A stretch of 42,307 bases of DNA from IMG/VR virus record IMGVR_UViG_2541047692_000013. One strand, 5' to 3'. This DNA is from a virus (taxonomy: Duplodnaviria; Heunggongvirae; Uroviricota; Caudoviricetes). Positions 1 through 39,512 of the stretch are shown here, one piece after another (positions within the stretch are counted from its first letter, which is position 1; each line of letters opens with the position of its first letter). Made by a program: the position numbers and the translations under genes. Under the pieces are notes generated by a model. The model was not told the DNA's origin. It ran no database searches and worked only from the letters and a program-made list of their open reading frames with translations.

Positions 1-516
1 ATGAAATTAAAAAAATGTCTTCTGCCTGTGGCAATGTTAGCGTCATTTACTCTGGCAGGATGCCAGTCAAATGCTGATGATCATGCCGCCGATGTTTATC
101 AAACCGATCAACTGAATACCAAACAAGAAACTAAAACCGTTAATATTATTTCCATTCTTCCCGCAAAAGTTGCCGTAGACAACGCCCAAAATAAACGGAA
201 CGCACAAGCCTTCGGCGCGCTTATTGGCGCTGTCGCTGGCGGTGTTATCGGCCACAACGTCGGGTCTGGCAGCAATTCCGGAACGACAGCAGGTGCAGTT
301 GGCGGCGGAGCTGTTGGCGCAGCAGCGGGTTCTATGGTGAATGATAAAACCTTAGTGGAAGGTGTTTCTTTAACATATAAGGAAGGCACCAAAGTGTATA
401 CCTCCACCCAGGTGGGTAAAGAGTGCCAGTTTACGACAGGTTTAGCCGTTGTTATTACCACGACGTATAACGAAACGCGTATTCAGCCAAATACCAAATG
501 TCCTGAAAAGAGCTAA
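1..516 (+). CDS. glycine-zipper lipoprotein (YcfJ-like); probable host gene
   Basis: Lipoprotein signal with lipobox LAGC; Gly-rich zipper segment GALIGAVAGGVIGHNVGSG typical of YcfJ/Rick_17kDa_Anti-type proteins; lies outside the phage lysis cassette. Confidence 0.55.
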   Translation: MKLKKCLLPVAMLASFTLAGCQSNADDHAADVYQTDQLNTKQETKTVNIISILPAKVAVDNAQNKRNAQAFGALIGAVAGGVIGHNVGSGSNSGTTAGAVGGGAVGAAAGSMVNDKTLVEGVSLTYKEGTKVYTSTQVGKECQFTTGLAVVITTTYNETRIQPNTKCPEKS

Positions 517-531
517 TAATCAGGAGGAGTC

Positions 532-1071
532 ATGAAGAAAGTTTTTCTTTGCGCCATCTTAGCCTCCTTAAGCTATCCGGCTATCGCCTCATCATTGCAG
601 GATCAACTCTCGGCTGTCGCAGAAGCGGAACAGCAAGGTAAAAATGAAGAGCAAAGGCAGCATGACGAATGGGTCGCGGAGCGCAACAGGGAAATCCAGC
701 AAGAGAAGCAACGTCGCGCAAACGCCCAGGCCGCGGCTAATAAAAGAGCGGCAACGGCAGCAGCGAATAAGAAAGCTCGTCAGGATAAACTGGACGCCGA
801 AGCCACTGCGGACAAAAAACGCGATCAAAGTTATGAAGATGAGCTACGTAGCTTAGAGATTCAGAAGCAAAAACTGGCGCTGGCGAAAGAAGAAGCCCGC
901 GTTAAGCGCGAAAACGAATTTATCGATCAGGAACTGAAGCACAAAGCTGCGCAAACCGATGTGGTGCAATCTGAAGCTGACGCAAACAGAAATATGACTG
1001 AAGGCGGTCGCGATCTGATGAAAAGCGTGGGTAAAGCAGAAGAGAACAAATCGGACAGCTGGTTTAACTAA
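532..1071 (+). CDS. secreted highly charged coiled-coil protein, function unknown; probable host gene
   Basis: ATG at 532 preceded by SD caggagg; N-terminal signal peptide (MKKVFLCAILASLSYPAIA); K/E/R/A-rich low-complexity body. Confidence 0.5.
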   Translation: MKKVFLCAILASLSYPAIASSLQDQLSAVAEAEQQGKNEEQRQHDEWVAERNREIQQEKQRRANAQAAANKRAATAAANKKARQDKLDAEATADKKRDQSYEDELRSLEIQKQKLALAKEEARVKRENEFIDQELKHKAAQTDVVQSEADANRNMTEGGRDLMKSVGKAEENKSDSWFN

Positions 1072-3087: not shown

Positions 3088-3189
3088 AAAGACCACCGTT
3101 TAATGTGCATGAAGCCCCACTTAGTTAGTGAAATAACACACATATTAAACCATATATGAATCACATTTAAACGGATAACTCTTCACGAA

Positions 3190-3206
3190 ATTACCCTATA
3201 GGTGAT
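3190..3206. promoter_or_regulatory. operator-like palindrome aTTACCctataGGTGAt (one mismatch) in divergent lysis / acetyltransferase promoter region
   Basis: Member of the recurring TTACC-N5-GGTAA family; 36 bp upstream of the acyltransferase ATG; TATCAT -10-like hexamer abuts it. Confidence 0.45.
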
Positions 3207-3241
3207 ATCATTGGGTTATCCTATTCAAAACGATAGCAATT

Positions 3242-5182
3242 ATGTCTTATTTAAAATACAGAACAGATATTGATGGGCTGCGAGCTATTGCGGTTTTGCT
3301 GGTCGTGCTGTACCACGCAAACTTTCCTATTCATGGTGGTTTTATTGGTGTAGATGTTTTTTTCGTCATATCAGGATATCTCATTACCAACATCATATAT
3401 AAAGAGACTAAAAGAAATATTTTTTCATTCCTTAATTTTTACAAACGTCGAATAAAGCGATTGCTCCCAGCTTTTGCTTTTCTTCTTTTATTTTTATTTG
3501 TTTACTGCAAATTATATTTGATGCCAGATGAACTTATATCATTCTCTAAAAGTGCGGTATACGCTCTTCTTGGCATAAGCAATTTCTATTTTTTTAGTAG
3601 CACAGGTTACTTTAACTCAACCTCTTATGAACCGCTTTTACACACATGGTCGCTTTCCGTTGAAGAGCAGTTCTACATTGTATGGCCTTTCATCGTTTTC
3701 ATGCTCGCTCGGAACTCAGGGACAAAAAAAGCAATAATAATATCCTCATTACTATTTATTGTATTCCTTGGTATTTCACAGTATGGAGCGGTTAATTATA
3801 AAACAGCAGCGTATCTCCTACTGCCTTTTAGGTTCTTTGAGTTGCTCTCAGGTGCCCTACTTGCTATCTATAAAGATTCAATAACAAAACATCTGCGCCA
3901 CGGTTCTGTAATTTCACTGGTCGGCGTAATGCTGATTGTGTTGAGTTCATTATTTATAAATTCTAACACGCCATTTCCTGGGTTCACTGTTTTGCCTACA
4001 TGTTTAGGCGCTGTAATGCTTATTGCTGCAGGTGACTCATCCAAAAACTTCATTTCTAAAGTGCTGTCTTTAACTCCAGTTGTTTATGTAGGAAGAATTT
4101 CCTACTCTCTTTATTTATGGCACTGGCCTGTACTGATTCTTGCTGAATACAGGGGTATCGATCTTACGGCCTTAAATGCGACGGCGCTCATACTTATCGC
4201 ATTCATCATGGCAAGCATAAGCTATCACTTCGTTGAAAAGCCATTTAGGAAGGATTCGCTGCAATATTTCAGGACTGCATTTATAACCATCTACTTGATA
4301 CCATTAATAGTATCCGCTGCCTATGCAGCGTACATTTTAAAAAATGATGGTTTTCGCGCCAAAAGTTCAGAGTTAGTATCTGAATTAGAAGAGAGAAACG
4401 CGACAAATATTATGCGCCCACAGTGTATTGATAAATTATTTATCGGTAATGTAAATGACTGTCATCTTGGCGTTAATAAAGGCGAAGTAGATGGCGTGCT
4501 TCTTGGTGACTCCTTTGGTAATGCATATGCTTACTTTATTGATGAACTTGCGAAAGATGCTGGAATATCAATAACAGATACTACATATAGCTCAACACCT
4601 GTAATATCAGGAATTTATGTGCAGGATATCAGAAATAAGATATCTGACATAGATGCTAACCTGATAATGACATATACAAAAAACAGGCTGGAGTATGCAG
4701 CAAAACAAAAGTTCGCGATAATTTCCGTTTTTTGGGATCAGTACGGGCCACAAAATAATTACTTCCGTATCTTCGATAAAAACGGTGACGTATCGGAGAA
4801 TGCTTACCAGTTGCAATCTGAAGCAATAAAATATCTGCTGTCCAATGGCGTGAAAGTTTACATCATTGCAAGACCTTACCAGTCTATTGGCCCTGCTGCG
4901 ATAAACAAACTGCGCCAAATTAAGCTACGGCATGGGGATGTAACAACTGAAAAATATGAATACGGCGTAAAGAAAGATGATCGGATAGAATACAAGTTAA
5001 AGCAGGAGTTCCCTCAGATAACGCTAATCGATCCTAACGATGTACTTTGCCACAAAGGGGAATGTGATGCCATCGTGGATGGGAAGATCATTTTCAGAAC
5101 TGATGGTTCACACCTGAATGCTGTTGGAGCAAAAAAAATCGGGGAAGAGTATTTGAAAAACTACGCAAACCCATTTCGATAA
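3242..5182 (+). CDS. O-antigen acetyltransferase-like (acyltransferase-3 membrane domain plus SGNH-type C-terminal domain); serotype-conversion moron
   Basis: N-terminal multi-TM acyltransferase-3 signature (DGLRAIAVLLVVLYH..., FFVISGYLIT); long periplasmic C-terminal domain as in OafA-type enzymes; visibly AT-rich; converges on tailspike. Confidence 0.75.
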   Translation: MSYLKYRTDIDGLRAIAVLLVVLYHANFPIHGGFIGVDVFFVISGYLITNIIYKETKRNIFSFLNFYKRRIKRLLPAFAFLLLFLFVYCKLYLMPDELISFSKSAVYALLGISNFYFFSSTGYFNSTSYEPLLHTWSLSVEEQFYIVWPFIVFMLARNSGTKKAIIISSLLFIVFLGISQYGAVNYKTAAYLLLPFRFFELLSGALLAIYKDSITKHLRHGSVISLVGVMLIVLSSLFINSNTPFPGFTVLPTCLGAVMLIAAGDSSKNFISKVLSLTPVVYVGRISYSLYLWHWPVLILAEYRGIDLTALNATALILIAFIMASISYHFVEKPFRKDSLQYFRTAFITIYLIPLIVSAAYAAYILKNDGFRAKSSELVSELEERNATNIMRPQCIDKLFIGNVNDCHLGVNKGEVDGVLLGDSFGNAYAYFIDELAKDAGISITDTTYSSTPVISGIYVQDIRNKISDIDANLIMTYTKNRLEYAAKQKFAIISVFWDQYGPQNNYFRIFDKNGDVSENAYQLQSEAIKYLLSNGVKVYIIARPYQSIGPAAINKLRQIKLRHGDVTTEKYEYGVKKDDRIEYKLKQEFPQITLIDPNDVLCHKGECDAIVDGKIIFRTDGSHLNAVGAKKIGEEYLKNYANPFR

Positions 5183-5185
5183 GGA

Positions 5186-5203
5186 GTGCGCCTCGCGGCG
5201 CAC
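5186..5203. terminator. GC-rich hairpin between convergent acetyltransferase and tailspike genes (no U-run)
   Basis: 7-bp stem gtgcgcc/ggcgcac with loop tcgc, in the 30-nt gap between the two stop codons. Confidence 0.35.
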
Positions 5204-5212
5204 ATGCCTAAA

Positions 5213-7444
5213 TTAAGACTTCTTAAGGTACGACCATGTAACAGTGGTCGTACCGCTGCTGGTAATAGATATATCCCTTTCTGATACGCTTGCTGTGAGG
5301 AACGCCGCAGTCTTCAGCGGCTGGATCATTGCTGTCGTACCATCATAAATTACCAGGAATGAAATCGCGTAGTTTGCACCTCCGCCAGAAACCCACACGT
5401 TAACATCATAAACTCCCTCAGAGTTTGGCAAAGTAAAGAGCACGGACGCTACGTTAGCGTTGACCGATTTAGTACCCTTGTCGGTATAGACCGTGGGCAC
5501 CTGAAGCCCATTGGCATTTTTATTTTCTACATACCCACCAGCAATAACGCCTGACGTGATGCAGTTCGTGTAGTTAACGTTGCCGGTGCTCACAGTAGAG
5601 ATGGTTGGAGTTCCTCCGGCCGGAGCCTGGAACCGGCAGTTATCTGCATCAACCTGCGAGGTTACATCTGTGTGGATGAATGATGGATAGCCGGCCATTC
5701 CTTCAAAAGCGATCGGCGTACCATCGAAGCTATCTTTGCAGTTCAGCATCTTCACGCGAGATCCATTTATCGCGCGGTAAAAATCAACGATACCATTAGA
5801 ACCACCGAAAGATGTTTTCAACTTGTTGCCAGAACCAACTGCCCCGACTATCGAAACGGTTGAATTATCGAATGTCATAAACGCCACCTCAAGTGCTGAG
5901 TTGTTGTTTATAACGTTCGCCTCACCATCAAAACCGGAGATAAGAAATCCGTGACAATTCGAAAGGTAAATAGCAGACTGACCGATAGACGCGTTGGAGT
6001 TTACTGTCATCTTATCTGCTGCGCAGTTCGTCATCTGCCCTGAAAGGAGGTTTGTTAAATACCACGCGCATACGCCACCCATTACATAGCAGGACTCATA
6101 ATGGATCGTCGTGCCGGTGTTTTTGTAGAAACCACCGCGACTGCGACGCACCCATACATGCTCAAGCCTAGACATATAATTTCCAGAGTCGTCATATACT
6201 CCCCACCATGCCCCATCTATATCGACGTTTTTAATCCTTATCAAACCCGGCGATGTCTCACCACCATTTATAAGAATGCCAATTTTACCGTCGTTTGTGG
6301 CAGCATCTGTTGGATAGTCAATTCCATTCTGATCATAGAAAATATATAAATTCTCAATATTTCCTGAAGCAAAAGACTCTCCATAATGTAAGCACGCTTT
6401 ATTTCCAATTACGGAAATAAAAGTCCCTGATCTATTTATTATGTTATTACACTCACCGTATACAGTTGCAGATGTATTCATCTTAATAGTGTCATTAACA
6501 AAATATGCATTTCCACCTGGAATAAACACATTTCGTCCAGTGTTAATAGCTGCCTGTATTCCTGCGTAGTCAAAAGACTGGGTAAGCGATGTCACAAATG
6601 GATATACCATTTGTGCTGCTGTCAATGTTGAAAACACTTCGCTTAACTGATGAAGTTTTCCATCGCCTGTAGCACCAAAATCTTTTGCACTAATAAAATC
6701 GCTGTTTTTATCATGCTGTGTACGAATAAATGAACTAATGAAAGGTTGCTTCACCGAGATCAGAGCATCGCCTTTCCCGTCCTCGCCGCTGGCCAACTGG
6801 TTGAATACGTCAGCCGCCGTTCCTGAAGGCACAGGGAACGGAACGGGCTTACCGTTGGCGATGCCGATTATGCTTCCTTCAAGTTGAGCGAGAGGTGGCA
6901 GCGGATCGATATAAGAATCAGGAACACGGATTGTATGGTCGATATTCGATAAAACCGTACTGTCCACATAATTCTTTGTGGATGCATCCTGCGGGTTTAC
7001 CGGGTCTTTCAGGTTTCGAATATAGTTGTTCAGCGCGTTATAATAATTTGCCACGAATGACGGCTTGCGCAGCGCCAAGCTAAACCAACTTCGAACCTGC
7101 TGGATCAGCATCGTTAGCTTATCAAAAGCATCCTCATGCACTTCTGCAAAGAACTTCCCCTGATTACGCAAATCAGTTTCCTGCGTAACCGGGAGCTCTC
7201 GTGATATAGAAATCTGGTAACCGTTAGCTAACGCCTTCGACAGAATTACATTACCGCCGTTATATCCACCAGCCCCAGTGACAGTGTAATCAGTATCCAG
7301 AGCCAGCACAGCGATATTTTCGTCAAGGTCAACCACCTGCACTACCAGATCAGATTCCTTGAAAACCCTAAAGGTATAAGGGAATGAAGTCGTAACGCCA
7401 TTGCCTGTGTATTCGTTGTGGTCAACTTCGGTTGAGACCGTCAT
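5213..7444 (-). CDS. tailspike / tail fibre protein with T7-type N-terminal adaptor domain and beta-helix-like receptor-binding domain
   Basis: N-terminus (YTGNGVTTSFPYTFRVF...DLVVQVVD...LDTDYTV) matches the conserved podovirus tail-fibre N-terminal domain; 743 aa; Gly/Asn/Thr-rich repeats. Confidence 0.75.
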   Translation of the reverse strand: MTVSTEVDHNEYTGNGVTTSFPYTFRVFKESDLVVQVVDLDENIAVLALDTDYTVTGAGGYNGGNVILSKALANGYQISISRELPVTQETDLRNQGKFFAEVHEDAFDKLTMLIQQVRSWFSLALRKPSFVANYYNALNNYIRNLKDPVNPQDASTKNYVDSTVLSNIDHTIRVPDSYIDPLPPLAQLEGSIIGIANGKPVPFPVPSGTAADVFNQLASGEDGKGDALISVKQPFISSFIRTQHDKNSDFISAKDFGATGDGKLHQLSEVFSTLTAAQMVYPFVTSLTQSFDYAGIQAAINTGRNVFIPGGNAYFVNDTIKMNTSATVYGECNNIINRSGTFISVIGNKACLHYGESFASGNIENLYIFYDQNGIDYPTDAATNDGKIGILINGGETSPGLIRIKNVDIDGAWWGVYDDSGNYMSRLEHVWVRRSRGGFYKNTGTTIHYESCYVMGGVCAWYLTNLLSGQMTNCAADKMTVNSNASIGQSAIYLSNCHGFLISGFDGEANVINNNSALEVAFMTFDNSTVSIVGAVGSGNKLKTSFGGSNGIVDFYRAINGSRVKMLNCKDSFDGTPIAFEGMAGYPSFIHTDVTSQVDADNCRFQAPAGGTPTISTVSTGNVNYTNCITSGVIAGGYVENKNANGLQVPTVYTDKGTKSVNANVASVLFTLPNSEGVYDVNVWVSGGGANYAISFLVIYDGTTAMIQPLKTAAFLTASVSERDISITSSGTTTVTWSYLKKS

Positions 7445-7547: not shown

Positions 7548-7564
7548 ATTACCTTTCAGGTGAT
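7548..7564. promoter_or_regulatory. operator-like palindrome aTTACCtttcaGGTGAt (one mismatch) in tailspike / antirepressor-domain divergent region
   Basis: Same family as the other TTACC-N5-GGTAA sites; about 100 bp upstream of tailspike start. Confidence 0.45.
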
Positions 7565-7600: not shown

Positions 7601-7620
7601 TACTGTATAAACATACAGTT
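7601..7620. promoter_or_regulatory. LexA (SOS) box TACTGTATAAACATACAGTT
   Basis: CTGT-N8-ACAG with AT-rich spacer; 17/20 match to E. coli consensus TACTGTATATATATACAGTA; overlaps a TATAAA -10-like hexamer; 20 bp upstream of ATG 7640. Confidence 0.65.
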
Positions 7621-7639: not shown

Positions 7640-7897
7640 ATGCAGCAGTATCACTATCCACTGGAAGAGGGATTTACCGAAAGGATTCACACGCCGGGAG
7701 GCGTCAGGTCACTGGTGGAAGGATCGCACTTGATGAAATTACTCCGGGATCTCGATAAGGATGGATTTAATGTCGATGGCCCACTTGCCGAACTGACTGC
7801 ACTGATTAACTACGTCACCAGCTCACAGATGTCTATGCAGGATCTGCAAACACATCTCGACTATTGTGCCGAACAACTACGAAAACAAACCACATAA
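7640..7897 (+). CDS. small protein homologous to the antirepressor C-terminal domain (stand-alone domain); candidate SOS-inducible antirepressor
   Basis: ATG 7640 with SD ggagaag; about 40% identity, gap-free, to the C-terminus of the Ant protein at 9045..9755 (IH.P.GV..L.E.S.LM.LL..L..DG..V.G..AELT...QTH). ORF track start 7517 would put the LexA box inside the CDS. Confidence 0.5.
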   Translation: MQQYHYPLEEGFTERIHTPGGVRSLVEGSHLMKLLRDLDKDGFNVDGPLAELTALINYVTSSQMSMQDLQTHLDYCAEQLRKQTT

Positions 7898-8666: not shown

Positions 8667-8683
8667 ATTACCTTAAAGGTAAT
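8667..8683. promoter_or_regulatory. operator palindrome aTTACCttaaaGGTAAt (perfect)
   Basis: Perfect TTACC-N5-GGTAA; immediately upstream of the 7919..8647 start codon on the minus strand. Confidence 0.55.
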
Positions 8684-8731: not shown

Positions 8732-8776
8732 TTGATTTTTATATTTCTCCGCGTTTATCATTACCTTTGCGGTAAA
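8732..8776 (+). promoter_or_regulatory. sigma70-like promoter (TTGATT, 18 bp, TATCAT) with perfect operator TTACCtttgcGGTAA overlapping -10/+1
   Basis: -35 at 8732-8737, -10 at 8756-8761, operator core 8761-8775. Confidence 0.5.
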
Positions 8777-8888
8777 TTTACATCGCACTCCTCTTGTGCC
8801 ATAGTAATCGGGCACTGGCAAAATCCAGTGCCGGGATTGGCGTCCCGGGTTACTAAGTGGCGCATACCACGCCAGACGTGGTTTTTTT
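8768..8888 (+). ncRNA. candidate small non-coding RNA, possibly antisense regulator of the downstream antirepressor mRNA
   Basis: Promoter at 8732-8761 and intrinsic terminator (ccacg-ccaga-cgtgg plus 7 T, 8867-8888); only an ATG-less ORF spans it; internal hairpins; two segments (8837-8843, 8853-8860) are collinearly complementary to the ant leader (8954-8961, 8968-8974). Confidence 0.3.
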
Positions 8889-9044
8889 ATGCGTTAAGCA
8901 CAGCTATATCCGAATTATGGTGGGCTGGGCAGGGGTCCGAAAGGACGCCGGTACCACTTAGGCCGGTACGCCAACCTTGTCCAGTTCACCACCAGTAATT
9001 GGCGTTGCGGTGGTGATTAAAATCACTAAGTGGAGATAACCACC

Positions 9045-9755
9045 ATGGCTAATGCTCAAACTTCCATCTTCAAATTTGAATCTGTTAACCCTATCCGTTC
9101 CATCATTATCGATGGCCAACCATGGTTTGTAGCCCAAGACGTTTGTAGTGCGCTGCGTATCCAAAACGTCACCCAAGCACTTGAAAAACTGGATGATGAT
9201 GAAAGGTCTATGTTCAACATAGGGCATGAACATCGTGCAATTTTTGACAGCCGAGTAAAAGAGATCAACATCATCTCCGAGTCAGGCCTCTACACACTGA
9301 TCCTCAGATGCCGCGACGCAGTGACACCAGGCACTATCCCCTACCGCTTTCGTAAATGGGTTACAGGTGAGGTTCTTCCTCAGATCCGCCGCACCGGAAG
9401 TTACATTAAAAACTCGCTCCCGCAGGAAGAACGCATAAAGATGGTTGCCGACCAGGTAGCCAACGCCACGGCGTCAGCAGTAATGCAGGCGATGAAGATA
9501 GAGAACAAAACCTACAGTGCCCCACTGAAGCCCGGCTACCGCAGTCTGATTCACTCGCCGTCTGGTGTTCTCGGCCTGACGGAGAACTCACTGCTGATGA
9601 ATCTGCTGAACCAGTTGCAGGACGACGGGCATGATGTATCGGGCGCGGCAGCGGAGCTGACCACCATGTTCTGCTACATCGTCGGTGTGAGCAAGTGCCT
9701 GCGTGATATCCAGACCCACGCGGAGTATATCAACGACAAAGCAGGGTTCTTCTGA
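9045..9755 (+). CDS. antirepressor (Bro-N / Ant family)
   Basis: Start taken as ATG 9045 with SD ggag; N-terminal Bro-N-like motif (IDGQPWFVAQDVCSALRI...LYTLILRCR...FRKWVTGEVLPQIRRTGSY). Confidence 0.75.
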   Translation: MANAQTSIFKFESVNPIRSIIIDGQPWFVAQDVCSALRIQNVTQALEKLDDDERSMFNIGHEHRAIFDSRVKEINIISESGLYTLILRCRDAVTPGTIPYRFRKWVTGEVLPQIRRTGSYIKNSLPQEERIKMVADQVANATASAVMQAMKIENKTYSAPLKPGYRSLIHSPSGVLGLTENSLLMNLLNQLQDDGHDVSGAAAELTTMFCYIVGVSKCLRDIQTHAEYINDKAGFF

Positions 9756-9826: not shown

Positions 9827-9843
9827 ATTACCTCAAGGGTAAG
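9827..9843. promoter_or_regulatory. operator palindrome aTTACCtcaagGGTAAg (perfect)
   Basis: 60 bp upstream of the 9902 ATG. Confidence 0.55.
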
Positions 9844-27033: not shown

Positions 27034-27071
27034 TTGACATTTAACGCACGAATTATTACCTTTCAGGTAAG
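27034..27071 (+). promoter_or_regulatory. promoter-like element (TTGACA at 27034-27039) with perfect operator TTACCtttcaGGTAA (27056-27070), in divergent region between virion operon and tRNA module
   Basis: Consensus -35 hexamer; operator where a -10 would lie; region is ORF-free on both strands. Confidence 0.45.
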
Positions 27072-27392: not shown

Positions 27393-27469
27393 GTGGCATT
27401 AGCTCAGTTGGACAGAGCAACCGCCTTCTAAGCGGTCGGTCGCAGGTTCGAATCCTGCATGCCACGCCA
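27393..27469 (+). tRNA. tRNA-Arg (anticodon UCU)
   Basis: 77-nt cloverleaf by hand: acceptor GTGGCAT/ATGCCAC, D-arm GCTC/GAGC, anticodon stem ACCGC/GCGGT with loop CTTCTAA, T-arm GCAGG-TTCGAAT-CCTGC, discriminator G, encoded CCA. Confidence 0.85.
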
Positions 27470-30201: not shown

Positions 30202-30236
30202 ATAACCACCGTGGTAATAGTTACCGTTGTGGTAAT
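30202..30236. promoter_or_regulatory. tandem operator sites at the terminase start: aTAACCaccgtGGTAAt (one mismatch) and gTTACCgttgtGGTAAt (perfect)
   Basis: Centres 18 bp apart; the first overlaps the TerS start codon and SD. Confidence 0.5.
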
Positions 30237-34142: not shown

Positions 34143-34221
34143 TTTACCCCTGAGGTAATTAAAAACCACATAAGACACGAAATCAATAGAGTTTAGAATA
34201 TTTTATTACCCAACAGGTAAT
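34143..34221. promoter_or_regulatory. internal early-operon control region: two perfect operators (TTACCcctgaGGTAA 34144-34158; TTACCcaacaGGTAA 34206-34220) flanking a promoter-like interval
   Basis: Centres 62 bp apart; first site is 3 bp from the start codon of 33796..34140; a weak hairpin plus T7 run (34231-34252, minus sense) lies just upstream. Confidence 0.5.
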
Positions 34222-35034: not shown

Positions 35035-35836
35035 CCCACACCCCTTCTATCCAGTCAGTGTTATTCCAGTCAAGCTCATCGCTTTTCCCGGCGTTTTTTG
35101 ATTTTCCCCTGATATGATTTACGTGCCTGGCGAATTTTTGTTCCCACTGAACCTGCGTGAACACTTTGCCCTCAGCCATCCAGTAATCCCGGAATGCAGC
35201 AAGTTCAGCAGGTGTAAATTCCGGTTCCGGCAGGGCCGTTCCCCACAGCGCAGCACGCCGTCGAAAATCCGGCGACGGATGCCAGCCATCGGTCATCGGA
35301 AATTTCCCGATGGGTTCACTCAGGCCATCCAGAAATTCAGGTTCAGCCACCTGCAACGGCATACCGTTCGCTTCACTGGTCGGAGCACCCTCGCGCACGT
35401 GCGCTATGTGTGGGGTTTTATATATATCTTCCTCTTCCTCTTCCTCTGGTAACTCCTTTTGTAACGCTGTTGGCGTTACTTTTTGCGTTACTCGTTTTCG
35501 ATGCTCTGCCACTCTTCTATTCGTAAGTGCACGTTTTTTCGATGATTCTCCATTATGTCGCTCAAAGTTTGGAAGAATTAGTTTGCCGTCATGATAAGCA
35601 AGCCATCCGACGCTAATGAGGGCGTCAGCAAATCCTGTAATAAAAGCGAGTCTATCAAGTACTCCTTTTGTAACGCTGCCAGCGTTACCGTCTATTGTTT
35701 GCTGGTCAGCCCATGCCCATATACGAACCAGCTTTCCAAGAACAGCATCTGGATCAATACCCAGAATTTCTGCTATCTGAAAAATTTCAGGTTTATCAGG
35801 AGTGATAACTTCAACCTTAATCCAGCTGCTTGCCAT
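35006..35836 (-). CDS. replication initiator / replisome organiser (functional analogue of lambda O)
   Basis: Start reassigned to ATG 35834-35836 (MASSWIKVEV...) with SD gagggg; acidic linker (EEEEEED); directly upstream of P-like gene; contains iteron-like repeats. Confidence 0.55.
   Translation of the reverse strand: MASSWIKVEVITPDKPEIFQIAEILGIDPDAVLGKLVRIWAWADQQTIDGNAGSVTKGVLDRLAFITGFADALISVGWLAYHDGKLILPNFERHNGESSKKRALTNRRVAEHRKRVTQKVTPTALQKELPEEEEEEDIYKTPHIAHVREGAPTSEANGMPLQVAEPEFLDGLSEPIGKFPMTDGWHPSPDFRRRAALWGTALPEPEFTPAELAAFRDYWMAEGKVFTQVQWEQKFARHVNHIRGKSKNAGKSDELDWNNTDWIEGVWDEINSRTSQ
35452..35687. repeat. iteron-like repeats plus AT-rich tract inside the initiator gene (candidate replication origin)
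   Basis: 17-nt direct repeat CTCCTTTTGTAACGCTG at 35452-35468 and 35661-35677, each followed by inverted half-site GCGTTAC (35472-35478, 35484-35490, 35681-35687); AT tract ttttatatatat at 35416-35427. Confidence 0.45.
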
Positions 35837-36029
35837 AGGTTTCCCCTCTTGCACTCTTTAGTGCACAAGCAAATTCATTACGATGGCGGTTGGCGCTATT
35901 CATTGCACATTCAACACATGTTCCGTTCAGAACATACCTTTCAGAGAGATGGCCGTGACGGCACCGCTTTCCTGTGAAATAGCGATTTAACCCGGCTTTT
36001 GCGGCCTCCATTCTGGTTACTATCTTCAA
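35817..36029 (-). CDS. small Cys/His-rich (zinc-finger-like) early protein
   Basis: 70 aa; motif CRHGH...GTCVEC; between cro-like and replication genes (position of lambda cII); start ambiguous (TTG 36029 or ATG 36011). Confidence 0.4.
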   Translation of the reverse strand: MKIVTRMEAAKAGLNRYFTGKRCRHGHLSERYVLNGTCVECAMNSANRHRNEFACALKSARGETYGKQLD

Positions 36030-36106: not shown

Positions 36107-36123
36107 ATTACCTTTGAGGTACG
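36107..36123. promoter_or_regulatory. operator-like palindrome aTTACCtttgaGGTACg (one mismatch) between cro-like and downstream early genes
   Basis: Same motif family; adjacent to a terminator-like hairpin. Confidence 0.4.
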
Positions 36124-36130
36124 AATAGAT

Positions 36131-36155
36131 ATGAAAAGACCGCCGGGTGGCGGTC
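36131..36155 (-). terminator. terminator-like hairpin downstream of the cro-like gene (tR1-like position)
   Basis: Stem gaccgcc/ggcggtc with loop gggt, followed on the minus strand by TTTTCAT. Confidence 0.4.
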
Positions 36156-36177
36156 TACAGAGGGTTGTAGCTGGATA

Positions 36178-36408
36178 TCATGAGTAGAAGAAGTATGCCA
36201 GTTCTGCTTTTGAGCGCAGCCATTGTCTTGTTTTACAGGCTTTAAAAAGCCCATTCATCAATACTTTACCTGGCATTTTGCGCTTACCTGTTAAGTGAGT
36301 CTGGATATAGTGACTCGTCGTTCCGGCTTCCTGTGCGAAGGCTTCACGCTCATCCGGAGTAAGTGCAAGCCAGTGCTTTTTGAAATCGAAATGTCCGTTA
36401 TCGCTCAT
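36178..36408 (-). CDS. Cro-like HTH regulator
   Basis: 76 aa; HTH (REAFAQEAGTTSHYIQTHLTG); divergent from the CI-like gene across the operator cluster; first gene of the leftward early operon. Confidence 0.6.
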   Translation of the reverse strand: MSDNGHFDFKKHWLALTPDEREAFAQEAGTTSHYIQTHLTGKRKMPGKVLMNGLFKACKTRQWLRSKAELAYFFYS

Positions 36409-36443
36409 AGCTATTGCCTGATATTTATTTCAGATAATAAATA

Positions 36444-36508
36444 TTCACCCATAAGGTAACAAAAATCAAGGATAGTTACCCATGAGGTGCATTTACCTGT
36501 TGGGTAAT
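36444..36508. promoter_or_regulatory. tripartite operator in the cro / cI-like intergenic region
   Basis: Three sites: TCACCcataaGGTAA (36445-36459), TTACCcatgaGGTGC (36476-36490), TTACCtgttgGGTAA (36493-36507); a minus-strand TTGATT -35-like hexamer lies among them. Confidence 0.6.
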
Positions 36509-36562
36509 ATTGCTTTAAATTGAATCATCTACTGATTCATATATGAGGCGATTTTCCAGAAA

Positions 36563-37147
36563 ATGAAAAGTATCCAGGACGTCCGCAGGCAAAATCTCAA
36601 CGACTTGATCGACCGTGAATTCAATGGTGTTCAGACGCGGATGGCAGAAAAACTTGGAACTCAGGCAAATCTGGTAAACCGCTGGGCTCTTGGCAAGAAG
36701 GTTATCGGCGACCAGGTTGCGCGAAAAATTGAAGCTGCCGCCAATAAACCACGTAACTGGCTTGATATCGATCGCTCGCTTTCTCAGGAAGGTTTTCAGC
36801 CTGTCGGCCCAAGCGACATTGGTCAGCTGGCGGCTCACAACCTGGAACGCTGGATGAGCGAAAGCCGCGACCTTTCAACTCAGGGAAAACTTCACCGCGC
36901 ATCCGGCGTCGCCCAGGTGACAATCAGCCGCCTGTTAAACAATGAGGTCAGTGTTTCCATTTCCACCCTGGAGAATGTTGCATCAGCATTCGGGCGTCAC
37001 GGCTATGAATTACTGATTCACCCGCACGACCCTGCGACCATCAACTATGACCGCTCGCGCTACGCATTGTTACCCGAAACCGAGAAAGCAAAGATCGAAA
37101 GTTACATTGAATTTGTCATCAACCAGAACGAAAAAAACAAACAATAA
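36563..37147 (+). CDS. CI-like repressor with two tandem HTH (XRE-type) domains and no peptidase/autocleavage domain
   Basis: 194 aa; HTH-like segments at about residues 20-45 (VQTRMAEKLGTQANLVNRW) and 110-140 (ASGVAQVTISRLLNNEVSVSISTLENVASAF); no Ala-Gly/Ser-Lys LexA-type cleavage module seen. Confidence 0.55.
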   Translation: MKSIQDVRRQNLNDLIDREFNGVQTRMAEKLGTQANLVNRWALGKKVIGDQVARKIEAAANKPRNWLDIDRSLSQEGFQPVGPSDIGQLAAHNLERWMSESRDLSTQGKLHRASGVAQVTISRLLNNEVSVSISTLENVASAFGRHGYELLIHPHDPATINYDRSRYALLPETEKAKIESYIEFVINQNEKNKQ

Positions 37148-37169
37148 AATCATATTTTTCAGTAAGTAA

Positions 37170-37192
37170 GCCGCCTTCTGGCGGCTTTTTTA
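37170..37192 (+). terminator. intrinsic terminator after the CI-like gene
   Basis: Stem gccgcc/ggcggc with loop ttct followed by TTTTTT. Confidence 0.7.
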
Positions 37193-37203: not shown

Positions 37204-37283
37204 ATTACCTAATGGGTAATTTTTTTTAACTCATATCTATTGACATCAAACCAAATACGCATAATTATTACCTCAACGGTAAC
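37204..37283 (+). promoter_or_regulatory. rightward early promoter (TTGACA at 37240-37245) flanked by two perfect operators
   Basis: Operators TTACCtaatgGGTAA (37205-37219) and TTACCtcaacGGTAA (37268-37282); the second overlaps the -10/+1 region; followed by SD gagg and ATG 37302. Confidence 0.55.
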
Positions 37284-37456: not shown

Positions 37457-37756
37457 ATGAACGTTAATCAGCAGAAAAATCTTCAAAAAATCATGCTGGC
37501 ATTCGACAAGGACTACCGCCTGTCAGAACAGCTATATGACCGACAAGTTGAACTGATCGAGAGCATCCGGCTTCATCAACTGGCCTCAACTTTCGACGCT
37601 GTAACAGGTAAAGGCGTTCGCCAGGAAGTACTGGAGGCCGCTAAAGACAGTCCAGAGTTCGAAGAACTGATGGATTCCTACCGGCGAGAGGCAATGGCAA
37701 TTATCGCCCGCTGGGATCTGGCTGATCAGCTTGATGGGCAGAGGGACGCGGCATGA
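37457..37756 (+). CDS. hypothetical early protein
   Basis: Start reassigned to ATG 37457 (MNVNQQKNL...) with SD gggaggg 7 nt upstream; 99 aa; 4-nt overlap with the exonuclease gene. Confidence 0.5.
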   Translation: MNVNQQKNLQKIMLAFDKDYRLSEQLYDRQVELIESIRLHQLASTFDAVTGKGVRQEVLEAAKDSPEFEELMDSYRREAMAIIARWDLADQLDGQRDAA

Positions 37757-38574
37757 AACCGGGAATTTATTTCGACATCAGCAACGAAGACTACCACGCC
37801 GGTGACGGCGTGAGTAAGTCGCAACTGGACATGGTTGCCAAGAATCCGGCGCTTCTTAAATGGGTTCAGGCAGCACCAGAAGACGAAGAGAAAAAGTCTG
37901 CACTGGATATGGGAACCGCATTGCACTGTCTGCTTCTGGAGCCTGGAGAGTTCGACAAACGCTTCATTGTTTCACCGAAATTCGAACGTCGGACGAAACA
38001 AGGTAAAGCTGACGAAGAGGCATTTCTTCGTGATATTGCGGATATGGGGATTTCGGTACTTGATGCAGAGCAGTGGCGGAAACTGGAGCTGATGCGTGAT
38101 AGCGCAATGGCTCACCCGGCGGCACGCTGGATGTTGGAAGCACCTGGTTACTGCGAAGCATCAATGTACTGGAACGATGAAGAGACGGGGGAGTTGTGCC
38201 GAATTCGTCCAGACAAATGGCTGAACGAGCACAACGTGATCGTCGACGTGAAAAAGGTTGCAGATATGGACCGTTTTGCACGCCACATCGAGGAATTCCG
38301 CTACCACGTGCAGGACGCAATGTACCGCGAAGGCGCAATGAGGGTTACTGGTCAGCCGCATGGTTTTTTCTTTCTTGCCGTGAACGAAAGCATTGATTGT
38401 GGTCGGTATCCGGTACGCGTGTTCGAGCTGGATGCGCAGGATGTCGATGCCGGGCACGCTCTGTTCCGCCGGGATCTGAATACCTATCACGAATGCCGCA
38501 TCAATGATGAATGGGGCGGTGTGGAAATCATTAAACGCCCTGAGTGGGCACGCAAACAGGATATGTACATATGA
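37753..38574 (+). CDS. PD-(D/E)XK-family exonuclease (exonuclease VIII-like recombination nuclease)
   Basis: Motifs RIRPD ... VIVDVKK ... YHVQDAMY consistent with PD-(D/E)XK / RecB-like active site; directly upstream of the annealing-protein gene. Confidence 0.65.
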   Translation: MKPGIYFDISNEDYHAGDGVSKSQLDMVAKNPALLKWVQAAPEDEEKKSALDMGTALHCLLLEPGEFDKRFIVSPKFERRTKQGKADEEAFLRDIADMGISVLDAEQWRKLELMRDSAMAHPAARWMLEAPGYCEASMYWNDEETGELCRIRPDKWLNEHNVIVDVKKVADMDRFARHIEEFRYHVQDAMYREGAMRVTGQPHGFFFLAVNESIDCGRYPVRVFELDAQDVDAGHALFRRDLNTYHECRINDEWGGVEIIKRPEWARKQDMYI

Positions 38575-39512
38575 GCAACGACATCGCAAACATCAACGCA
38601 CCAGTAGACACAGCAATCGCTGGAACTGCTGCAACTATTTTCAGCCCAGACGGCTTGAACCAACTGATGAAATTCGCCGAGGTAATGGCGCAAAGCCGCG
38701 TAACGGTACCGGCGCACCTCGCCGGGAAACCAGCTGATTGCATGGCCGTGGCAATGCAGGCTGCGCAGTGGGGAATGAACCCGTTTGCCGTGGCTCAGAA
38801 AACCCATGTTGTGAACGGCACGCTAGGTTATGAAGCCCAATTAGTAAACGCAGTTATCTCAACGATGTCGCCAACAAAAGATCGCATCAACTACGAGTGG
38901 TTCGGGCCGTGGGAACGCGTGATCGGTAAGTTTGTTGAGAAAACATCCAAAAACGGCAATCCATATATCGCACCAGGCTGGACTCTAAAAGACGAAGAAG
39001 GCTGCGGTGTTCGCGTATGGGCAACCATGAAGGGCGAGGATCAACCTCGAGTGCTTGAGTTAATGCTGTCTCAAGCACAGGTAAGAAACTCCACACTTTG
39101 GGCCAGTGATCCGAAACAACAACTCGCATACCTTGCGACAAAACGCTGGTCTCGCTTGCACTGTCCTGACGTAATCATGGGCGTCTACACCCCTGACGAA
39201 TTACAGGAAACGGCACCGCGCGTTGAGCGAGACATTACTCCGCAAACGACCACTGCTGCGGGAATGAACAGTCTGATCAACGCTAAACCAGTGAAAAAGC
39301 CTGATGAGCAAACGCGTAAAGCGGATAGCCGTGATCCAGAAGAAATGCTGATGGCCTTTACCAGCGCAGCGATGAATTACAGCACTGTCTCCGAACTGGA
39401 TAAGGCTTACAAATACATTGAACAGAAACTTTCAGATGATGACGAACTGCTGGCAAAAGCCACCGACGTTTACAGCGTTCGTCGGGAAGAATTAAACGAA
39501 ACATCTATGTAA
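38571..39512 (+). CDS. single-strand annealing protein (Bet/RecT family)
   Basis: Start ATG 38571 overlapping exonuclease stop; segment ETAPRVERDITPQTT resembles lambda Bet (ERQPERDITPVND). Confidence 0.65.
   Translation: MSNDIANINAPVDTAIAGTAATIFSPDGLNQLMKFAEVMAQSRVTVPAHLAGKPADCMAVAMQAAQWGMNPFAVAQKTHVVNGTLGYEAQLVNAVISTMSPTKDRINYEWFGPWERVIGKFVEKTSKNGNPYIAPGWTLKDEEGCGVRVWATMKGEDQPRVLELMLSQAQVRNSTLWASDPKQQLAYLATKRWSRLHCPDVIMGVYTPDELQETAPRVERDITPQTTTAAGMNSLINAKPVKKPDEQTRKADSRDPEEMLMAFTSAAMNYSTVSELDKAYKYIEQKLSDDDELLAKATDVYSVRREELNETSM

Follow-up and report, generated by a model that had tools for sequence, protein, structure and literature searches.

The closest described counterpart of the immunity switch analysed here is that of phage SPC32H, whose repressor Rep is described in a passage of PMC9986798 as a DNA-binding domain followed by a dimerisation domain and then by a tetramerisation domain that also binds the antirepressor, with Phe187 and Phe190 as aromatic interface residues of the C-terminal domain. 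Going by an excerpt of PMC9638917, SPC32H Rep binds DNA as a tetramer in which the paired DNA-binding domains come from different dimers, and a tetramer of the antirepressor Ant binds two Rep dimers and breaks the Rep tetramer; a passage of PMC7380047 adds that the antirepressor is produced after LexA self-cleavage and the repressor inactivated. The same LexA-controlled antirepressor logic has been reported for the Gifsy prophages (Lemire et al. 2011, PMC3121763), and in phage ZX5 overexpression of ORF21, which has the same sequence as phiV10 ORF40, left no free phage and cut the holin and endolysin transcripts by >99.9%, overexpression of the Bro-N antirepressor in turn lowering lysogeny (PMC9782041). 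Here we compare with these systems the immunity region of a 42,307-nucleotide stretch of viral DNA (Caudoviricetes; IMG/VR record IMGVR_UViG_2541047692_000013), referred to as the window, which encodes a 194-amino acid repressor that we also call Rep and for which an earlier note, made from the sequence alone, had claimed two helix-turn-helix (HTH) segments in one chain and induction by a route other than self-cleavage. The primary papers on the SPC32H Rep–Ant switch are those of Kim and Ryu 2013 (J Virol 87:11775) and Kim et al. 2016 (PNAS 113:E2480).

We consider it very likely that Rep of the window is a non-cleavable repressor of the SPC32H type which acts at operators spread over the whole genome and is inactivated by an Ant protein made in the SOS response. 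The switch as such is already known, the identical protein having been annotated in phiV10 and tested in ZX5 and the mechanism having been solved structurally for a homologue.

Homology and domain layout of Rep

The window is a phiV10-type Uetakevirus (epsilon15-like) prophage of Escherichia coli and the region under study is its immunity region, with locus DNA 97–99% identical to phiV10, ZX5, TL-2011b and the O157 typing phages 9 and 10. The locus is present in 562 of 5426 complete E. coli genomes (about one in ten). Two divergent genes separated by a spacer of 154 bp form its core, and the coordinates given for the locus in the earlier note were all correct:

36563..37147, plus strand: rep, the 194-amino acid immunity repressor (identity to phiV10 p40, 5D50_A match, Pfam, AlphaFold2/Foldseek)
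36178..36408, minus strand: Cro-like gene of 76 amino acids, first in the divergent lytic operon (phrog_35, similarity to SPC32H_042)

Rep is 100% identical to phiV10 p40 and to the repressors in 15 phage records, and the GenBank note for p40 reads 'putative transcriptional repressor; two helix-turn-helix motifs (PF01381); similar to epsilon15p38'. It shares 42% identity with SPC32H Rep over the full length, and in a phmmer search residues 1–190 matched residues 2–197 of PDB chain 5D50_A (E=4e-42), with a further match to the C-terminal fragment 5D4Z_A (E=4e-20); 5D50 is the crystal structure of the SPC32H Rep–Ant complex and 5D4Z that of the C-terminal part of Rep. Identity to SPC32H Rep by domain is 54% in the DNA-binding domain (residues 1–70), 34% in the middle and 45% at the C-terminus, and the NLVNRW helix of the N-terminal domain is common to the Rep proteins of the window, SPC32H and epsilon15. 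SPC32H Phe187 and Phe190 align to Tyr181 and Phe184 of Rep, and Phe184 is invariant in the family.

The two HTH segments claimed in the earlier note were recovered both by Pfam, which placed HTH_3 at two stretches (best at residues 106–147) and a YdaS/Cro-type HTH at 21–61, and in an AlphaFold model built with 25 homologues (mean predicted local distance difference test, pLDDT, 76.6), which has helical domains at 4–59 and 83–151 and a C-terminal helix at 172–193. A Foldseek comparison of this model with the PDB returned 5D50 and 5D4Z as best matches, and the rest of the 50 top matches listed were mostly XRE-type and other HTH proteins with a few unrelated enzyme chains. Judged by this homology, Rep is a member of the SPC32H Rep family, the immunity repressors of Uetakevirus, with a predicted layout of an N-terminal HTH DNA-binding domain (approximately residues 1–70), an HTH-like middle domain (approximately 89–152) and a C-terminal tetramerisation and Ant-binding domain (approximately 153–194).

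Operators in the immunity region and across the genome

The operator motif is TTACC-N5-GGTAA, usually extended to ATTACC-N5-GGTAAT, and its 5-bp arms are centred 10 bp (one helical turn) apart, as the earlier note had it. With no more than one mismatch allowed the motif occurs 16 times in the window, where 0.67 copies are expected, and none of 100 shuffled sequences reached 16; the observation is thus confirmed as real and far beyond chance. All 14 copies in ZX5 are intergenic, although intergenic DNA makes up 8.6% of that genome. In the immunity region the motif accompanies the following elements:

36434..36462, minus strand: leftward promoter-like site TTGTTA-17-TATTAT for the Cro-like gene, PR analogue (consensus match only)
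36445..36459: operator TCACCCATAAGGTAA, nearest the Cro-like gene and within the spacer of the leftward promoter (1 mismatch)
36476..36490: operator TTACCCATGAGGTGC, the middle site (2 mismatches; same relative position in SPC32H and epsilon15)
36493..36507: operator TTACCTGTTGGGTAA, nearest rep (exact)
36137..36156, minus strand: terminator-like hairpin 3' of the Cro-like gene (a putative terminator in the phiV10 annotation too)
36108..36122: operator-like TTACCTTTGAGGTAC, between the Cro-like terminator and the replication genes (syntenic site in ZX5)
37168..37187, plus strand: terminator-like hairpin at the end of the rep transcript (annotated in phiV10 too)
37205..37219: operator TTACCTAATGGGTAA, preceding the -35 element of the rightward early promoter (exact)
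37240..37268, plus strand: rightward early promoter TTGACA-17-AATTAT, PL analogue (10 of 12 consensus positions)
37268..37282: operator TTACCTCAACGGTAA, directly adjoining the -10 element and the transcription start (exact; 63 bp from the 37205 operator)

Both architectural claims of the earlier note hold here, in that the Cro-like gene and rep diverge from three operators (36445, 36476 and 36493) and the rep gene is followed by a terminator and then by a rightward promoter with two more (37205 and 37268). Rep operator sites are found at about ten intergenic regions in all, including those upstream of the terminase, head and lysis genes, and those outside the immunity region are as follows:

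7549..7563: operator-like TTACCTTTCAGGTGA, upstream of ant (same position annotated as repressor-binding in epsilon15)
8668..8682 and 8761..8775: two exact operators upstream of isrK, C4 and ant2 (the second abuts a TTGATT-18-TATCAT promoter-like site upstream of the same three elements)
9828..9842: exact operator between the second antirepressor gene and a 210-amino acid open reading frame (ORF)
34144..34158 and 34206..34220: pair of exact operators with 62-bp spacing, located between the P-like replication gene and a DUF1064 gene (pair syntenic in ZX5, SPC32H and epsilon15)
30203..30235: operator pair (sites 30203 and 30221), syntenic with ZX5 sites just upstream of the small terminase gene (position annotated as a repressor site in epsilon15)
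27056..27070: exact operator (ZX5, SPC32H and epsilon15 have syntenic sites upstream of the portal/head block)
3191..3205: operator-like, in the divergent region that precedes the lysis cassette (SPC32H and epsilon15 have syntenic sites)

Operator spacings recur: neighbouring sites of the triple are 17 and 30/31 bp apart, and pairs spaced by 62/63 bp flank two promoters, a pattern that would be compatible with one Rep tetramer holding two sites. It should be noted that the genome-wide operator set is already public through the epsilon15 RefSeq record, in which the same motif is marked as repressor-binding at 7 places and 5d50_A is cited for the repressor.

The earlier note had also suggested that one Rep monomer might fill one operator, with each HTH reading one 5-bp half-site, and this did not stand up. 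Two HTH-type segments do lie in the single Rep chain, and Gln118 and Arg123 in the recognition-helix equivalent of the second domain are invariant in a 25-sequence family alignment, but Gln118 varies in the alignment that takes in the SPC32H and epsilon15 Rep proteins. An inverted repeat such as this operator implies a pair of identical reading heads in two-fold symmetry, whereas BLASTP gave no alignment between the two HTH domains of Rep, so that the same pentamer would not be readable by both; an internal HTH duplication reading identical half-sites, and with it the monomer-spanning model, was rejected on this result. It is moreover the N-terminal domain with the NLVNRW helix that is best conserved (54% against 34% for the second), in line with the genus-wide operator core, and for SPC32H Rep the available accounts describe the second domain as one of dimerisation, pairs of N-terminal domains as binding the palindrome and the tetramer as the DNA-binding form. 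We therefore regard binding by a single monomer as very improbable and favour pairs of N-terminal domains as the probable readers of each operator.

Absence of cleavage machinery and the probable route of induction

Several searches were directed at a cleavable Rep and all were empty. Peptidase_S24 gave no Pfam match in Rep at E<=1 and an NCBIfam search also gave nothing, the Ala-Gly and Cys-Gly cleavage dipeptides are absent from all 194 residues, and no LexA/CI C-terminal peptidase fold was among the 50 top PDB matches listed for the Rep model. A cryptic S24 peptidase was rejected on these grounds, and with neither S24 domain nor cleavage site and an all-helical model Rep does not belong to the LexA/CI-type self-cleaving class. 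The 86 Rep homologues that we found, all from Enterobacteriaceae and of approximately 194 amino acids or shorter fragments, carry HTH Pfam domains only and none has an S24 domain. This bears out the earlier note, which had seen no autocleavage domain.

Cleavage could also be the work of a dedicated phage protease of the ImmA/IrrE type, a possibility we considered since the XRE-type repressors ImmR and DdrO are cleaved by partner metalloproteases, and for which we found no support. The genes neighbouring rep were scanned on both sides for an M78/COG2856 metalloprotease and gave no peptidase match in Pfam or PHROGs, and an ImmA-like partner was rejected on this basis; the three domains of 5D50 account for all 194 residues of Rep, and a conserved LexA-controlled Ant is present. 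Inactivation by proteolysis, whether by cryptic self-cleavage or by such a partner, is in our view extremely unlikely.

Because Rep has neither an S24 domain nor a cleavage site, induction would have to bypass self-cleavage, and this conclusion of the earlier note is supported, and the probable route identified, because Ant, a LexA box and a Rep operator are all present in the window, in agreement with what has been published for SPC32H Rep. The elements concerned are:

7640..7897, plus strand: ant, an 85-amino acid antirepressor (89% identical to SPC32H Ant; PDB 5D50_E, E=5e-48)
7601..7620: LexA (SOS) box TACTGTATAAACATACAGTT, downstream of the ant promoter and ahead of the start codon (agrees with the consensus at 17 of 20 positions)
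9030..9755, plus strand: second antirepressor (ant2) of 241 amino acids, with a Bro-N domain and a C-terminal Ant-like domain (Pfam Bro-N, E=1e-19)
8812..8888 and 8913..8996, plus strand: isrK-like RNA (67.7 bits) and C4-antisense-like RNA (66 bits), respectively (Rfam, above gathering score)

The LexA box lies twenty bases upstream of the ant ATG and is the sole good box in the window, and the order operator–LexA box–ribosome-binding site–ATG is kept upstream of ant in the window, ZX5, SPC32H and epsilon15. Residues 160–236 of the second antirepressor match 5D50_E (E=2e-13) and the protein is 81% identical to ZX5 ORF4, annotated as 'anti-repressor'. The isrK-like and C4-like elements form the leader of its gene, and a LexA box looked for at that gene (9030..9755) was not found.

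We note that Ant is 89% and Rep 42% identical to the SPC32H counterparts, with the operator core common to both phages, which suggests by analogy with Gifsy crosstalk that Ant may work across immunity variants. This contrast in conservation raises the question of what determines immunity specificity; the operator spacers differ in composition.

Rep as the immunity repressor and the Cro-like protein

That the 194-amino acid protein is an accessory regulator and another protein the true immunity repressor, such as the product of the 76-amino acid divergent gene with its match to a PHROG labelled 'transcriptional repressor', is scarcely credible, given that free phage and lytic transcripts were lost when ZX5 ORF21, stated to be identical in sequence to phiV10 ORF40, was overexpressed (PMC9782041), that the SPC32H homologue is named rep in GenBank and called the lysogeny repressor in PMC9986798, and that rep occupies the position of lambda cI between divergent operator-covered promoters.

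The 76-amino acid protein matches phrog_35 'transcriptional repressor' (E=5.6e-13) and is 76% identical to SPC32H_042; it had no significant Pfam match (the best was RepC, E=0.19) and no NCBIfam or PDB sequence match. A single-sequence AlphaFold2 model is a five-helix bundle (pLDDT 81.6), and the nearest folds were the YdaS N-terminal domain and the DNA-binding domain of the 434 repressor at a template modelling (TM) score of approximately 0.6, although with Foldseek E>=1 these matches are not significant. Its gene is the first of the lytic operon, divergent from rep with common operators, and is kept in SPC32H, epsilon15, phiV10 and ZX5. By position and fold class the name Cro-like is reasonable but provisional.

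Proposed mechanism

In the mechanism we propose, the N-terminal HTH domain of Rep would read the ATTACC-N5-GGTAAT palindromes, the second HTH-like domain would dimerise, and the C-terminal domain would both tetramerise and dock the antirepressor. Bound to the three sites between rep and the Cro-like gene Rep would block the leftward lytic promoter, and bound to the pair that flanks the TTGACA promoter at 63-bp spacing it would block the rightward early operon (recE, recT, xis); with further operators by ant, the second antirepressor operon, the replication/late-early genes and the terminase, head and lysis genes, Rep probably holds nearly every transcription unit directly. On DNA damage, active RecA would lead LexA to cleave itself and leave the SOS box at 7601–7620, allowing Ant to be made, and Ant would then bind the C-terminal domain of Rep and split the tetramer into dimers with poor DNA binding, upon which the lytic promoters would fire. 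The second antirepressor (9030..9755), a Bro-N/Ant fusion, probably reinforces the switch or adds a second input to it.

This mechanism combines what the window itself provides (homology, domain architecture, the lack of an S24 domain, the statistics and synteny of the operators, the LexA box and the two antirepressor genes) with what the literature on homologues supplies (tetramer binding, the Ant mechanism, LexA control and the ZX5 repressor and antirepressor phenotypes), and from the two together we infer the action of Ant on this Rep variant and the roles of individual operators. A number of points weigh against it. The biochemistry and structures are those of SPC32H Rep, which is only 42% identical, and the binding of Ant by the present Rep is predicted by analogy; the details of the SPC32H mechanism come by way of secondary accounts; and the ZX5 study covered the large Bro-N antirepressor and not the small LexA-controlled Ant (PMC9782041). 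A scan upstream of rep gave no convincing sigma-70 match for a rep promoter, and it is also a reasonable objection that the Cro-like label rests on position, a PHROG match and a fold match below significance.

A bolder reading, which is possible but which we think rather doubtful, makes Rep a direct genome-wide clamp at approximately ten promoter regions and not a two-promoter switch, with two antirepressors converging on its C-terminal domain. The pairs spaced by 62–63 bp (about six helical turns) would in that case allow a single tetramer to bracket a promoter with its two DNA-binding pairs, and the two antirepressors may be differently gated, one controlled by LexA and the other by the isrK/C4 RNAs. 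Were this true, then with Ant conserved cross-induction, and possibly partial cross-immunity, would be predicted across the genus.

Returning to the SPC32H-type switch released by an SOS-made Ant, we give it little weight as a discovery and see its practical value in annotation. In E. coli genomes the locus is labelled only 'helix-turn-helix domain-containing protein' and it can now be read as a probable Rep/Ant-type SOS-inducible immunity switch, and the inducibility of such prophages can be predicted from the operator set together with ant and its LexA box.

Surrounding genes and other features of the window

The gene arrangement around rep is a lambda-type layout. Downstream of rep on its own strand lie the terminator hairpin and the 37240..37268 promoter, which would drive two small genes (of 50 and 104 amino acids), the genes for a RecE-like exonuclease (recE), for RecT (recT) and for an AlpA-type excisionase (xis), and further downstream genes. 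On the opposite strand, beyond the 76-amino acid gene and its terminator, are a 70-amino acid gene, a DnaT-domain replication initiator and a lambda-P-like protein. The RecE-like exonuclease (37753–38574) and RecT (38544–39512) are separate overlapping ORFs as in ZX5, while the phiV10 record has a single fused 'recET' coding sequence and SPC32H has an HNH endonuclease gene inserted between the RecE-like and RecT genes. The 70-amino acid gene (35817–36029, minus strand) sits between the Cro-like terminator with operator 36108 and the replication genes, and encodes a conserved Cys/His-rich protein of phrog_1081 (unknown function), which may be a small zinc-binding regulator.

Elsewhere in the window, a tRNA-Arg gene (anticodon TCT; 27393–27469) lies near the start of the head gene block and close to operator 27056, and SPC32H has a tRNA-Arg at the syntenic place. 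Positions 3163–7098 (approximately 4 kb) are without nucleotide match to ZX5 and form a variable part of the genome, holding a 646-amino acid ORF (3242..5182, plus strand) and most of a 743-amino acid ORF (5213..7444, minus strand), the first approximately 350 bp of which do match ZX5; by position these two would be a serotype-conversion gene and the tailspike. At the left end, positions 1–1071 encode a glycine-zipper/TraT-like protein (1..516) and a DUF5384 protein (532..1071) without counterpart at that place in ZX5 or SPC32H, and these may be cargo genes or flanking DNA. The first letters of the window are exactly ATG, and its last gene is the integrase.

Comparison with known systems

In the phiV10 and ZX5 group, phiV10 p40, the repressors of O157 typing phages 9 and 10 and, as stated in the ZX5 paper, ZX5 ORF21 are 100% identical to Rep and the locus DNA is 97–99% identical, and nothing of substance separates the window from them at this locus; it departs from them in other places, namely the tail fibre region and 1.1 kb at the left end. 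The epsilon15 gp38 repressor belongs to the same family (42% identity) and has the same operator motif, although epsilon15 is a Salmonella phage with a different immunity-protein variant. The epsilon15 sequence also contains the three sites that separate its repressor gene from gp39, which its record leaves unannotated.

The window resembles SPC32H in the full-length Rep homology, the predicted three-domain layout, gene order, syntenic ATTACC-N5-GGTAAT operators, three of which stand between rep and the Cro-like gene at spacings of 17 and 30/31 bp, as well as in an Ant that is 89% identical and stands behind the same LexA box. It differs in that the operator spacers are of mixed composition, whereas they are A/T-rich in SPC32H, in having two sites at the early rightward promoter where SPC32H has three, and in having a Bro-N antirepressor and isrK/C4 RNAs, none of which is annotated in the SPC32H record.

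As in lambda CI/LexA systems, the repressor gene lies between divergent promoters, with a trio of operators to one side and another operator set by the opposite early promoter, and like that of lambda it ends in a terminator. In contrast to those systems Rep has neither S24 domain nor cleavage site, and its operator is found at far more promoters than in lambda, which has it at two. A non-cleavable repressor with a small LexA-controlled antirepressor encoded outside the immunity region is shared with Gifsy-1, -2 and -3 (GfoR, GtgR and GfhR) and with phage 186 CI/Tum, but these are unrelated phages (lambdoid siphoviruses and P2-like, respectively) and the likeness is one of logic. The Gifsy proteins are said in a passage of PMC3121763 to interact as dimers, as against the Rep and Ant tetramers that an excerpt of PMC9638917 gives for SPC32H.

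The second antirepressor gene of the window, preceded by Rfam isrK and C4 elements, recalls the isrK–orf45–anrP module of Gifsy-1, where isrK is carried on a long polycistronic mRNA together with orf45, anrP and isrJ (PMC7380047), and the c4–icd–ant module of P1 and P7. Unlike these, the module in the window is flanked by Rep operators, and its antirepressor is predicted to end in a domain like SPC32H Ant.

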